A stretch of 49,379 nucleotides of DNA from Pseudobdellovibrionaceae bacterium. GTDB taxonomy: Bacteria > Bdellovibrionota > Bdellovibrionia > Bdellovibrionales > Bdellovibrionaceae. Shown here piece after piece: positions 5,578 to 9,038 of the stretch. Position 1 is the stretch's first letter; every line of letters begins with the position of its first letter. The translations under genes were made by a program, and so were the position numbers. The DNA is taken from the NCBI GenBank assembly GCA_041288045.1, contig JBGGMM010000051.1:1-49379 (forward strand), read 5' to 3'. The notes under the pieces are model-generated. The model ran no database searches, had not been told where the DNA came from, and saw only the letters and a program-made list of their open reading frames with translations.

Positions 5578-6789
5578 GTGCTCATGGAGCCAATTAAAAT
5601 TTTACTTGTTGAAAATATTCATCCCGTGGCCAAAAGCCGTCTTGAAGAAGAAGGCTTTCAAGTCGATCTGAAGACCCATTCTCCGAACGAGAAAGAACTG
5701 ATCGAGATGCTTCAAGGCTATCAGGCTTTAGGCATTCGCTCAAAAACAGAAATCACTCGAAATATTTTCGAAAAATCTCCGCATTTGATGACTGTGGGAT
5801 GTTTTTGCATTGGCACCAATCAAGTCGATGTGACCACTGCCAACCGCCGAGGAGTCCCTGTCTTTAATGCTCCTTATAGCAACACCAGATCCGTCGCTGA
5901 AATGGTGATTGCTGAAATGATCGCTCTTTCAAGGCAGCTTGGTGATCGAAGCGCTCAGGCTCACCAAGGTGAGTGGGTGAAATCCGCCGAAGGCTCTCGG
6001 GAGGTCCGAGGAAAAACATTGGGAATTATCGGCTACGGTCACATCGGCTCTCAAGTCAGCATTTTAGCTGAAGCATTAGGAATGAAAGTTCTTTTCTTTG
6101 ATATTCTGAAGAAGCTGCCTCTAGGAAATGCCCAGTCGGTCAATTCATTGGAAGAGCTTTTGATGAAATCAGATTTTGTCACTTTGCATGTGCCGGAAAC
6201 GCCGCAAACCAAGGACATGATGTCAGCTCGTGTGCTGAAGCAAATGAAAAAAGGCGCCCACTTGATCAATGCCAGCCGCGGAACGGTGGTGGTGATTGAA
6301 GATTTAGTGGAAGCTCTGAAGAGCAAACACCTGGCAGGCTGTGCGATTGATGTTTTTCCGGTGGAGCCAGCCAGCAATAAAGAAAAATTTGTGTCTCCCT
6401 TACAGGGCGTGCCCAATGTGATTCTTACTCCGCATGTCGGGGGGAGTACCGAAGAGGCCCAATACGCTATTGGCCTTGAAGTGGCCGAAAGCTTCACCCG
6501 ATATTTGAAAATCGGCTCCACTTCGGGCGCTGTGAATTTTCCAATTGTCGATCTGCCTGTGCAAAAAGGAGCTCATCGGATTTTGAATGTGCATCGCAAT
6601 GAGCCTGGAGTTCTGGGGGAAATCAATAGTGTGGTTTCTGAGGCCGGTGCCAATATCTTAGCGCAATATTTATCAACGGATCAGCATATCGGTTATCTGG
6701 TGATGGATGTCGAGAAAGCCAACGCCGCTCCTCTTTGTGAAGAGATCAAAAAGCTTTCACGCAGTATTCGCACTCGAATCGTGTACTAA
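5578..6789 (+). CDS. serA: D-3-phosphoglycerate dehydrogenase (E. coli type, with ACT domain)
   Basis: GCFCIGTNQVD, NAPYSNTRSVAE, GYGHIG, TPHVGGSTEEAQ, ACT motif HRNEPGVL. Confidence 0.95.
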   Translation: MLMEPIKILLVENIHPVAKSRLEEEGFQVDLKTHSPNEKELIEMLQGYQALGIRSKTEITRNIFEKSPHLMTVGCFCIGTNQVDVTTANRRGVPVFNAPYSNTRSVAEMVIAEMIALSRQLGDRSAQAHQGEWVKSAEGSREVRGKTLGIIGYGHIGSQVSILAEALGMKVLFFDILKKLPLGNAQSVNSLEELLMKSDFVTLHVPETPQTKDMMSARVLKQMKKGAHLINASRGTVVVIEDLVEALKSKHLAGCAIDVFPVEPASNKEKFVSPLQGVPNVILTPHVGGSTEEAQYAIGLEVAESFTRYLKIGSTSGAVNFPIVDLPVQKGAHRILNVHRNEPGVLGEINSVVSEAGANILAQYLSTDQHIGYLVMDVEKANAAPLCEEIKKLSRSIRTRIVY

Positions 6790-6916
6790 GTACTGTCTAA
6801 AATTCAGACACTCGCCCTCATTTGGGAACTGATGTAAAGTCCCACTATTCAGGGTTTTAGATGTCTGAACCGTCCTTCGAACTTCTTCCCCTCTGAAGGC
6901 GTAGTAAGAATTGAAG

Positions 6917-6954
6917 GCCCGATTTGCTGAACCAGTAAGTCGGGCTTTTTTTTT
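6917..6954 (+). terminator. Rho-independent terminator
   Basis: GCCCGATTTGCTG-aac-CAGTAAGTCGGGC stem followed by 9 T. Confidence 0.9.
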
Positions 6955-7214
6955 CAACAAAAAAAATCTTCTGGGAAATCAAAGAAAATTAAATTTCATT
7001 GTCTCAAAATTTTTTGAGAGCGATTTTCCATGTGTCTTTCAAGGTGTTAACGCATCTCAATCTGAGAGCCCTGCCACTGTCGAAATTCTAACACTTCAGA
7101 GACTGCGGATCCCGCCGAAGAGTTGATTGTCGACGGCAGAAACTGTGGGTGAAACTCCCCAGGCTGGCGCAGGAGACTCGAGACTCCATTCGACAATACA
7201 CAGGAGGACATGTG

Positions 7215-7283
7215 GTGATTAAGAACCGAAGACTGCATTTGCTGGAACTTCCCTATCTCCCAGAGAGGGGCCCTCCAAAATGA
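7215..7283 (+). CDS. Putative 22-aa small peptide MIKNRRLHLLELPYLPERGPPK
   Basis: AGGAGG at 7202-7207, GTG 7 nt downstream, TGA at 7281-7283; ends in RGPP; terminator follows. Confidence 0.45.
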   Translation: MIKNRRLHLLELPYLPERGPPK

Positions 7284-7310
7284 GGTGAAGCGTTCGATAG
7301 CTTCGGATGC

Positions 7311-7347
7311 AAAGCGCTTGAGATGGTCTCAAGCGCTTTTTGTTTTT
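7311..7347 (+). terminator. Rho-independent terminator
   Basis: Perfect 13-bp inverted repeat AAAGCGCTTGAGA-tgg-TCTCAAGCGCTTT plus T-tract. Confidence 0.9.
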
Positions 7348-7443
7348 GGGGCCTGTGATTTTTGTGATGCGTGAGTGATATCTGGTTATCGTACCCTTAT
7401 AGGTGTACGGAAGATTGAGTGTGTTGGTGGAGTTGAGTGGAGA

Positions 7444-7482
7444 TCATGGCGTGTCTGCATCCATGCAATCGGGGCAGGCCTG
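7444..7482 (-). repeat. Palindromic repeat family 2 copy 2 (partial)
   Basis: Reverse complement matches 1501-1539 at 34/39. Confidence 0.8.
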
Positions 7483-7498
7483 TGATAAATGCCGCAGC

Positions 7499-7611
7499 GT
7501 TTTCTGGAAACTCGCCGCAGGCGAGCCCCGAAGGGGTGAGGCCGTGGAGGGCCGAATTTCCAGAAAAGACGGACATGGACGTTCACGATCAGGCAAAGTC
7601 GCGACCTTCGC
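7499..7611 (-). repeat. Structured repeat family 1, partial copy C (3' module)
   Basis: Reverse complement contains GATCGTGAACGTCCATGTCCGT and GCCTCACCCCTTCGGGGCTCGCC...GAGTTTCCAGAAAAC, shared with the copies at 19011 and 24588, plus 26 extra bp (7543-7568). Confidence 0.9.
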
Positions 7612-7614
7612 GCT

Positions 7615-9009
7615 TCAAAGATCAAAAACCTTCCCCGGATTCATAATCTGATCCGGATCGAAGACCTTCTTAATCCCTCTCATCAATTCAATCTCAGCTT
7701 TTGAGCGAGTGTAACTCAAGAAAGATTTCTTGGTGAGTCCCACGCCGTGTTCAGCGGAAATACTGCCGGCTTGTTTTCGAACGGCATCAAAAACCATTTG
7801 ATCGACCTTGCGACATTCTTGCACGAACTCTTCTTTGCTCATGCCCTTGGGTCTTAGGATATTGATGTGCAAATTGCCATCACCAATATGGCCAAACCAG
7901 ATCACTTCCCAAGTGGGGTAGGCCTGAGAGAGAATTCCATCCAGCGCGTGCATAAAGGCCGGAACTTTTGAAATGGCGACAGAAATATCGTTTTTGTAGG
8001 GGGAGTATTTGGCCAAAGACTCTGAAATGTCCTCGCGAAGACGCCAAAAATTTTTAGCTTGGGAATCAGACTGGCTCATCGCTCCGTCGACCACCAGACC
8101 TTTTTCCACACAGGATTCAAAAACTTCTAGAGCTGCCGCTTGTTCGGCTTCTGAGCGCATTTCCACTTCGGCTAGAACGTAATAATCACTGACGCTTTCA
8201 AAAGGTCTTGGCAGATTCGTGCTTTCAATCACTTTTTGCAGAGCTTTTTCAGAGAACATTTCAAAAGCCACCAAAGTGCATTTGCGCTTGAATTCGCTAA
8301 ACACACTCATCACTGCATCCAATCCGGAAACACCCAGAACTAGGACTTGCAAAGGAGGTGGAGCTTGAGTCAATCGGATCTGTGCTTCTGTGACAAATCC
8401 TAAAACGCCTTCACTGCCGATAAAAAGATGGCGCAGATCCAGGCCCGTGGCGTTTTTCACCAGCGAATTGTTCAAATCCAAAATTTCCCCAGCTCCAGTG
8501 ACCACTTTCAAGCCCGACACCCAATCGCGAGTCAGCCCGTAGCGAACCACTTTGATCCCGCCAGCATTGGTGGCGATATTGCCGCCCATCTGCGAAGAGC
8601 CCCGAGCGGCAAAGTCCACAGGGTAATAAAGTCCTTTGTCGTGGGCATATTGCTGCAAGGATTCTGTGACCACGCCAGCTTGAATGGTGACCACTTGATC
8701 GACTTCGCTGAAATTCAAAATCTGATTCATTTTTTCAAATGAAACGATGACTTCGCCTTGAGTGGCAACAGCAGCCCCGCTCAAGCCCGTGCGTCCGCCT
8801 GAGGGGACAAGAGCGATTTTATTTTTTCTCGCCCAGAGAACGATTTTTTGCACCTCTTCTGTGGTCAAAGGAAAGAGGATGGCTGAAGCCTGAATATCGA
8901 AATAAGTGGTCCAATCTTTTCCATAGTATTTCAAAGATTCCAAATCCGTTTTGATCTGGTCGGGTTTGAGAAAATTCAATTCACTGAGGAAATTGGCGAC
9001 TTTTGACAT
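7615..9009 (-). CDS. FAD-linked oxidase / D-2-hydroxyacid (D-2-hydroxyglutarate-like) dehydrogenase
   Basis: PSGGRTGLSG, GGNIATNAGG, GSEGVLG, FGHIGDGNLH, SAEHGVG, MNPGK; start set at ATG 9009. Confidence 0.9.
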   Translation of the reverse strand: MSKVANFLSELNFLKPDQIKTDLESLKYYGKDWTTYFDIQASAILFPLTTEEVQKIVLWARKNKIALVPSGGRTGLSGAAVATQGEVIVSFEKMNQILNFSEVDQVVTIQAGVVTESLQQYAHDKGLYYPVDFAARGSSQMGGNIATNAGGIKVVRYGLTRDWVSGLKVVTGAGEILDLNNSLVKNATGLDLRHLFIGSEGVLGFVTEAQIRLTQAPPPLQVLVLGVSGLDAVMSVFSEFKRKCTLVAFEMFSEKALQKVIESTNLPRPFESVSDYYVLAEVEMRSEAEQAAALEVFESCVEKGLVVDGAMSQSDSQAKNFWRLREDISESLAKYSPYKNDISVAISKVPAFMHALDGILSQAYPTWEVIWFGHIGDGNLHINILRPKGMSKEEFVQECRKVDQMVFDAVRKQAGSISAEHGVGLTKKSFLSYTRSKAEIELMRGIKKVFDPDQIMNPGKVFDL

Positions 9010-9038
9010 AGGCCCTCTTTGCAAAGGCTATTTAATCC

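Follow-up and report, generated by a model that had tools for sequence, protein, structure and literature searches.

What can a ribosome-arrest motif do at the end of a short open reading frame (ORF) that is followed by no sense gene? This question is raised by a locus in a Pseudobdellovibrionaceae bacterium (assembly GCA_041288045.1), of which we analysed contig JBGGMM010000051.1 from position 1 to 49,379 (hereafter called the window). The element under study, the RGPP (Arg-Gly-Pro-Pro) unit, is a predicted transcription unit of ~220 nt at about 7127–7347 on the + strand, located in an intergenic stretch (6790–7614) that is flanked by two convergent genes. An initial annotation had taken it for either an orphan riboswitch-like leader controlling a micro-protein or a ribosome-stalling dual-function small RNA (sRNA). 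As judged by its conservation, the unit is real and, in the samples searched, confined to two families, and the second of these two proposals is the best reading that remains. In the form we favour, the unit would be a translated sRNA whose ORF programmes a pause or an arrest of the ribosome that acts on the RNA itself, a proposal on which our confidence is evenly balanced.

Coding evidence and the C-terminal motif of the ORF

The ORF was analysed in 40 distinct sequences, to which six from weaker matches were added (46 in total). Rows were dropped if they were exact duplicates of one genome obtained via two routes, if the ORF was cut by a contig end (L048 and L024) or if the 5' part was missing (L036); the ORF of the latter likewise ends in RGPPK. 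While the initial annotation had placed the start at the GTG at 7215, yielding a peptide of 22 residues, the codon at 7212 is GTG in all 40 relatives, and that at 7215 is capable of serving as a start in only 13 of them. The ORF has 23 codons because its start is the GTG at 7212 (Table 1). Mean column entropies over the 15 codons up to the Pro-Pro pair were 0.94, 0.74 and 1.49 for the first, second and third codon positions, respectively, a pattern that was not present in the other two frames of the same stretch. Codon usage within the motif varies to the same effect: its Arg is encoded by AGG (15), CGG (8), CGA (5), AGA (2) and CGT (1), representing both codon families, all four codons each are used for Gly and for the first Pro, and the ORFs are closed by TGA, TAG or TAA. 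From these patterns it is clear that the ORF is under selection for its amino acids and most likely translated, and the RGPPK-TGA ending described before is present and conserved with codon-level selection among the relatives.

The ORFs of the relatives comprise 22–28 codons and share the conserved peptide core L-E-L-x(4-5)-[EG]-[RT]-[GA]-P-P. Their C-terminal motif is RGPP in 35 of the 46 sequences, TAPP in ten (nine from genus g3 and a tenth that is unassigned) and TGPP in one. All 15 complete ORFs retrieved in a genome-collection scan end in RGPPK, although the search pattern spanned codons 1–12 only. Behind the Pro-Pro pair, the peptides carry no further residue (in the second family, f12, which stems from the order sample) or K, R, Q, QH, QVF or QQVAL, and outside of the TAPP group (genus g3) the stop follows 0–1 codons past the pair. 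In most of the window's family (f1), a Lys codon is conserved in this position and changes synonymously between AAA and AAG. The peptide of the window, MVIKNRRLHLLELPYLPERGPPK, consists of 23 residues and is charged; it contains no hydrophobic stretch and no signal peptide or transmembrane segment. Reading its PYLP residues as PqqA-like or as similar to a proline-rich antimicrobial peptide was rejected, since they are not conserved.

The start codon is overlapped by an out-of-frame mini-ORF, ATG-TGG-TGA, which had been noted before and is indeed present. Its general form is NTG-TGG-TRA ('M-W-stop'): 38 of 40 relatives have a codon at −2 that could serve as a start, 38 of 40 reach a stop one to four codons later, and the spacing to the Shine-Dalgarno (SD) sequence is only 2–3 nt. 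The mini-ORF may be a by-product of the GTG-GTN sequence, or a start-stop element.

Long-range pairing of the coding sequence with the 3' untranslated region

Codons 5–7 of the ORF (AAC-CGA-AGA) show no synonymous change in f1, and a CTTCGG sequence in the 3' untranslated region (UTR) is equally fixed there. We attribute the frozen synonymous sites to a long-range helix that these codons form with the 3' UTR (Table 1). Its two strands change together in f12, in genus g54 and in one genome of genus g3, and at least nine complementary sequence pairs, forming helices of 6–7 bp, were observed at the same position of the ORF. These comprise ACCGAAG/CTTCGGT, TCCGAAG/CTTCGGA, TCCGAAT/ATTCGGA, GCCAAAG/CTTTGGC and GCCAATT/AATTGGC, as well as TGCCAAA/TTTGGCA, GGCCAAA/TTTGGCT, TACCCGA/TTGGGTA and AGCCAG/CTGGTT, and the pair in g54 is CGAAGGT/ACCTTCG. 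In f12, where the helix changes, the N-terminal third of the peptide also varies widely.

The best duplex between ORF nucleotides 10–27 and the UTR has a mean energy of −10.4 kcal/mol compared to −5.1 kcal/mol for shuffled 5' windows, and in 35 of the 40 sequences no more than five of 100 shuffles were as good. For a MAFFT alignment (A5), five near-duplicates and a sequence cut by its contig end (L088) were removed from the 40 sequences and the other 34 retained; in this alignment, 92.9% of the helix cells are paired, and both-sided changes occur in four of the seven pairs. The first Pro codon of the motif lies 41–44 nt past the 5' strand and 27–37 nt (mode 29–30) before the 3' strand. A local hairpin of the window (7287–7291/7300–7304) competes for the 3' strand; it is lineage-specific and absent from most g3 members. 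The interpretation of CUUCGG as a UUCG tetraloop was rejected, as its closing stem is not conserved.

The 5' three-way junction and its palindromic loop

The initial annotation had proposed a helix between 7126–7133 and 7190–7197 that closes a three-way junction just upstream of the AGGAGG sequence. Both the helix and the junction hold up, the helix with a core of 7127–7133/7190–7196 (P1) that is supported by covariation. In an alignment of 34 distinct rows (A4), 87.9% of the junction cells are paired compared to 34–43% with slid partners, both-sided changes affect 20 of the 23 junction pairs and none of 500 shuffles reached the observed values, all of which is to be read with the bias towards the junction that results from fitting A4 to the model structure. 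P1 and P2a already co-vary in a plain MAFFT alignment, and the minimum-energy fold of 7127–7347 yields P1–P3 at −77.9 kcal/mol, with z = −2.77 and none of 200 shuffles reaching so low an energy. P2 spans 7134–7169; an internal loop interrupts it, and its terminal loop, UGAAACU, is rich in A. Between the helices, the segments J2/3 and J3/1 differ among the relatives both in length and in sequence. Two g3 genomes (L095 and L096) have no junction domain, yet they have kept the promoter, the SD sequence, the ORF, the long-range helix and the terminator.

The 8-nt loop of P3 consists of a purine, a perfect 6-nt palindrome and another purine in all 42 relatives possessing this domain. Four types of palindrome were observed, TTCGAA, CTTAAG, CTCGAG (in the window) and GTCGAC, and three of these recur in both families. 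A change from one type to another needs two coordinated substitutions, and no intermediate was found among the relatives. In genus g54 (L093 and L094), the three-way junction is built differently and carries a third hairpin, CCU-GGCC-AGG, which is also palindromic; the peptide ends in RGPPR there. The P3 loop is probably a kissing-loop contact joining two copies of the RNA. Pairing of the loop with CUUCGG was considered and rejected, being feasible for UUCGAA and CUCGAG loops and not for CUUAAG.

Promoter, terminator and stand-alone status of the unit

The motif T..AG-N14-16-.CGA.. is present at a fixed distance 5' of P1 in 32 of 34 relatives, the misses being L048 (no motif) and L053 (CCGT instead of CCGA), and it also occurs in f12 and in variant loci. 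A transcript start at ~7127 (±2), the first base of P1, is predicted from the position of this promoter. Several relatives carry the version TTAAG-N15-CCGATA; among the mapped attack-phase promoters of Bdellovibrio bacteriovorus, 92 of 140 are reported to contain TTAAG-N16-CCGATA and were assigned to FliA/sigma-28 (PMC3627812). The window's genome contains seven exact consensus sites, each of which precedes a same-strand ORF (≥100 codons) by 8–28 nt. Compared to three sites in a reversed control, this is a weak enrichment, and the products of those ORFs are not flagellar; the sites support the promoter assignment by their position before ORFs rather than by their count. Transcription of the unit is probably carried out by the sigma-28 (FliA) polymerase, the driver of Bdellovibrio attack-phase genes. 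Pairing of the CCGAA at 7115–7119 with TTCGG, as suggested by RNAalifold, was rejected: in f12 the −10 box remains CCGA[AT] although the strands of the real helix change.

Two small inverted repeats, TCTCA-N-TGAGA, are located upstream of the promoter (7003–7020 and 7056–7068), and a GTCTCA motif is found ~15–20 nt upstream of the −35 box in other genera as well. These repeats may represent the site of a regulator.

The initial annotation had further assumed that a long hairpin (7071–7139) competes with P1 as a switch. This hairpin can be drawn in the window, but alignments A1 and A2 show no conservation of its 5' arm. Because it lies over and upstream of the conserved sigma-28-type promoter, it is probably not part of the RNA at all, and the proposed switch fails with a partner that is unconserved promoter DNA.

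A terminator scan of the region detected four terminator-like sites compared to 1.0 expected, including those at 6913–6949 and 7311–7339, which confirms the two flanking terminators described before. The stem of the latter shows both-sided changes in six of nine pairs (alignment A5), and a terminator follows the ORF in every relative with a contig extending that far. No sense gene is present downstream of the unit in the window, as previously stated, and none is consistently linked to it in the relatives: the adjacent downstream ORF runs towards the unit in the window as well as at 11 of 16 further loci, whereas the other five loci have it on the same strand. The flanking genes are unrelated across genera (serA/FAD-oxidase, nuclease/phosphatase-family/PBP, glutamate dehydrogenase, peptidase C25 and others); a DUF5522 gene lies downstream of the unit in G002 and G006. 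These data support a stand-alone unit that has a promoter motif and a terminator of its own and is without a consistently linked downstream sense gene.

Table 1. Features of the RGPP unit and its flanking genes (positions refer to the window).
Feature	Position	Strand	Details
Sigma-28 (FliA)-type promoter	7095–7120	+	−35 TTCAG 7095–7099, 15-nt spacer, −10 CCGAAG 7115–7120
Three-way junction	7127–7196	+	P1 7127–7133/7190–7196, P2a 7134–7139/7164–7169, P2b 7143–7149/7157–7162, P3 7172–7175/7184–7187
P3 loop A-CUCGAG-A	7176–7183	+	6-nt perfect palindrome 7177–7182
Shine-Dalgarno AGGAGG	7202–7207	+	conserved; 4 nt (34/40) or 5 nt (6/40) before GTG
Out-of-frame mini-ORF ATG-TGG-TGA	7210–7218	+	overlaps main start codon
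23-codon ORF	7212–7283	+	M(GTG)-VIKNRRLHLLELPYLPERGPPK-stop; RGPP codons 7266–7277; ends RGPPK-TGA
Long-range helix, 5' strand CCGAAG	7226–7231	+	ORF codons 5–7
Long-range helix, 3' strand CTTCGG	7301–7306	+	just before terminator
Intrinsic terminator	7311–7347	+	13-bp stem 7311–7323/7327–7339, then TTGTTTTT
serA-like ORF	5578–6789	+	2-Hacid_dh plus ACT domains
FAD-linked oxidase gene	7615–9024	−	convergent with serA-like gene

Distribution among genomes

The spread of the unit was followed with a covariance model (R1) built on the 5' domain and the start of the ORF; all figures refer to genome samples, in which a unit not found is not a unit absent. Within f1, R1 matched 47 of 151 sampled genomes, representing 11 of 41 genera. 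The order sample yielded matches in 11 of 30 genomes of f12 and in none of 89 genomes of the other 11 families, and the phylum sample in none of 141 genomes outside f1. Genus g10, which is rich in complete genomes, gave no match in 32 genomes of the family sample or 17 of the order sample, nor with laxer filters, and R1 did not match two genomes of the window's own genus that are 81% and 93% complete. Two weak model matches (L091 and L092) contain neither an SD sequence nor the ORF and were discarded as false positives. The carriers in genus g3 include two genomes that consist of a single contig (G079 and G124), for which cultured isolates probably exist.

Searching 40 relatives by BLAST recovered the core (7115–7353) from four genomes belonging to the window's genus, and two further genera yielded shorter pieces. 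With a pattern made of ORF codons 1–12 only, nine loci were found in the species-genome collection, each under the title of a metagenome-assembled genome of Bdellovibrio or Pseudobdellovibrionaceae, and a second pattern found eight metagenome loci.

Proposed mode of action

In the mechanism we propose, the SD sequence and the start codon would be unpaired, within the ~35 nt that separate P1 from the long-range helix, and the ribosome would load there. On elongating, it would melt the long-range helix and subsequently pause or arrest at R-G-P-P with the RGP-tRNA in the P site and the Pro-tRNA in the A site. The corresponding codons would be CCT (7272–7274) in the P site and CCA (7275–7277) in the A site, a stall position that is predicted for this ORF and borrowed from the toeprints of peptides with RAPP-like (Arg-Ala-Pro-Pro) motifs, which are reported with the codon of the third residue in the P site (PMC10987492). 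RGPP and RAPP are described as causing robust arrest refractory to EF-P; ordinary proteins are reported to avoid RGPP strongly, and arrest peptides to be enriched in it at their C-termini (PMC12992588). At the stall, the nascent chain would consist of 21 residues and be wholly inside the exit tunnel. With the chain within the tunnel and no gene downstream, the arrest could therefore not act like those of SecM or ApdA, and because there is neither an outside pull nor a downstream gene, the output would have to be the RNA–ribosome complex itself. The properties affected might be the conformation of the RNA, its lifetime, its dimer state or its occupancy by ribosomes, and the palindromic loop would pair two such RNAs. 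The free variation behind the Pro-Pro pair is consistent with a ribosome that seldom has to proceed beyond it. Three predictions can be made for the unit: its transcript of ~220 nt should depend on sigma-28, ribosomes should give a toeprint on the first Pro codon, and the RNA should dimerise via the palindromic loop.

A more specific version, which we regard as rather improbable, is that the RNA serves as a single-occupancy ribosome trap whose complexes are paired via the kissing loop, as an RNA-based analogue of ribosome hibernation. A single ribosome would open the helix between ORF and 3' UTR and arrest at RGPP, midway along the loop, and the helix would close again behind and ahead of it, thereby blocking a second initiation. 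Made under FliA in the attack phase, when the cells do not grow, such RNAs would park ribosomes in pairs on an RNA scaffold or report the translation capacity.

Several points weigh against a programmed arrest on this RNA. The TAPP (10 of 46) and TGPP (1 of 46) variants lack the Arg of the motif, any replacement of which is reported to have abolished arrest in ApcA, ApdA and ApdP (PMC12992588). The synonymous conservation of the Lys codon behind the Pro-Pro pair indicates that ribosomes probably reach that codon. While the ORFs of the unit encode 22–28 residues, RAPP/RGPP arrest peptides have roughly 80–130; RAPP-like peptides also carry a localisation signal for their release (Sec/YidC), which the peptide described here does not have and with it no pulling force, and they precede a co-directional regulated gene, of which there is none at this locus. 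The transcript, its start site and the stall are predictions from sequence, dimerisation is read from the palindromy of the loop alone, and the alignment quantifying the junction is the biased one mentioned above. Finally, the junction, being absent from two genomes, is not essential to the role of the ORF.

Alternative explanations

The strongest competitor is an ordinary microprotein gene, from which the 23-residue peptide would be released as a free effector with an amphipathic N-terminal half and the P-P tail as a binding epitope, while the RNA structures would set only mRNA stability and translation rate. This would account for the selection along the whole peptide, which extends beyond RGPP, for the conserved Lys with its synonymous changes, for the TAPP variant of g3, which is without the Arg required for RAPP-type arrest, and for the retention of the ORF in the two genomes in which the junction was dispensable. 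It does not account for the free drift of the stop position and of the residues behind the Pro-Pro pair, for the use of a motif that is reported to be avoided in ordinary proteins and to be enriched at the C-termini of arrest peptides (PMC12992588), for the fixation of synonymous sites in codons 5–7 by an RNA helix or for the wide variation of the N-terminal third in f12, where this helix changes. We regard a free microprotein as possible, if doubtful.

The arrest proposal faces less competition from a riboswitch-controlled micro-ORF, in which the junction would bind a small ligand, e.g., a cyclic dinucleotide, and thereby gate translation of the peptide. No Rfam 15 family matched within 7040–7350, either at the gathering score or at E values up to 10, and the best-kept loop of the domain is a palindrome rather than a pocket. 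The variable bases of J2/3 and J3/1 and the two g3 genomes without a junction argue against an aptamer, and the junction is rebuilt in g54. No conserved alternative pairing hiding the SD sequence was found; the only option is that the 3' arm of P3 (CUC) could pair with it over 3 bp (CUC/GAG). These observations leave the riboswitch-like leader of the initial annotation distinctly improbable, despite a covariation-supported three-way junction that ends 5 nt before the SD sequence, the CUC/GAG option and the precedent of an orphan riboswitch RNA reported from Bdellovibrio, merRNA (PMC3627812).

It appears highly improbable that the unit controls a downstream gene in cis, as a leader or attenuator analogous to known arrest and leader peptides. 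A strong terminator follows right after the ORF in all members without a conserved anti-terminator, and the gene beyond it faces the unit in the window and at most further loci and belongs to different families in different genera, which outweighs the same-strand ORFs at five of the 16 loci and the DUF5522 gene following the unit in two genomes. Least probable of all is a purely non-coding base-pairing sRNA with an incidental ORF, for which the sRNA-like size, the own terminator and the invariant, A/U-flanked CUUCGG just before the terminator in f1 would speak, but which conflicts with the clear codon periodicity and synonymous codon turnover, with the invariance of SD sequence and GTG and with a CUUCGG that is not a fixed seed, as it changes together with the ORF strand in f12.

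Neighbouring sequence elements

The terminator at 6913–6949 had been assigned to serA by the initial annotation. It is present, but it belongs to a conserved block of ~100 nt (6852–6955, + strand), which it ends and which is not tied to serA: in G002, G006, G007 and L032 the block precedes the RGPP unit in the same orientation, also where serA is not the neighbour. Bases 6855–6910 are 100% identical to parts of two contigs of 151 and 262 nt with differing flanks from two runs labelled soil metatranscriptome, which cover only these bases of the upstream block and no part of the RGPP unit. For 6800–7450, no RNA data set was listed, and neither result bears on whether the unit is expressed. The block matched no Rfam family, and it may be a separate small RNA. 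Within the window's genus, block and unit together are situated between the same two convergent genes in either orientation (L023, L026, L027 and L030), which suggests an inversion of the intergenic module.

On the other side of the unit, a 113-bp repeat (7499–7611) follows directly after the stop of the FAD-oxidase gene. Eleven more copies with 87–96% identity are present in the same genome, and the repeat looks like a miniature inverted-repeat transposable element (MITE) or a repetitive extragenic palindromic (REP) element. A motif of ~31 nt at 7443–7475 has many repeats in the related genomes G006 and G007.

Significance and comparison with known systems

The characterised RAPP/RGPP arrest peptides are cis-regulators of a downstream gene that sense protein export. 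At the locus described here, the RGPP motif is carried instead by a cytosolic ORF of 23 codons, which lies on a structured small RNA with a terminator; this RNA has been kept across two predatory families. Neither an ORF with an arrest motif on a stand-alone terminated small RNA nor this RNA family was found in full-text literature searches. If the ribosome indeed stalls, the output would be an RNA–ribosome complex, a use of programmed arrest that we did not find described. The unit moreover represents an additional, uncurated RNA family, whose covariation is unusually clear and includes that of a helix between coding sequence and 3' UTR.

Several classes of known RNAs share parts of this architecture. 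The dimerisation site of HIV-1 is a self-complementary kissing loop. OLE, ROOL and GOLLD RNAs are reported to be homo-oligomeric (PMC12286853). The unit resembles these kissing-loop RNAs in its purine-flanked palindrome of 6 nt in a hairpin loop and in paired substitutions that keep the loop self-complementary; it differs from them in being small and also translated, and its dimerisation is a candidate property. The sRNAs of attack-phase B. bacteriovorus and merRNA are described as stand-alone small RNAs with a FliA-type promoter and no downstream ORF (PMC3627812), a context similar to that of the unit. Unlike merRNA, the unit contains no c-di-GMP aptamer according to the Rfam scans, and its likeness to the attack-phase RNAs of B. 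bacteriovorus consists of promoter and context, with no sequence or model match in genus g10.

SgrS/SgrT, RNAIII/hld and SR1/SR1P are dual-function sRNAs encoding small proteins. The layout described for this class, an independent small transcript combining RNA structure with a translated small ORF (PMC12310071), is the same as the one we infer for the unit. In contrast to these sRNAs, no seed for pairing in trans is evident in the unit, and its conserved single-stranded candidate co-varies with the ORF. A dual-function sRNA with an arrest motif was not found in our literature search.

TnaC, SpeFL and the Erm leaders are short ligand-sensing leader peptides that control a downstream gene via Rho or exposure of the SD sequence. 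They share with the ORF of the unit a size of ~20–35 codons, conservation along the length, an end in or near proline and a chain that would be wholly in the tunnel; they differ from it in that nothing lies downstream of the unit and no ligand is indicated.

The RAPP/RGPP arrest peptides, as described for ApdA, ApdP, ApcA, the RQH family, CruR and ORFs located upstream of genes in Streptomyces lividans (PMC7897499, PMC10987492, PMC12992588), likewise carry their motif near the stop (1–2 codons from it), and they share with the unit a conserved stretch of ~12 residues before the motif and a patchy taxonomic distribution. Embedding of the ORF in a structured, terminated small RNA and the TAPP motif of one genus set the unit apart from them. 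Although it fails on two of their features, the localisation signal and the downstream target, our comparison suggests that the unit works most like a RAPP/RGPP arrest ORF.

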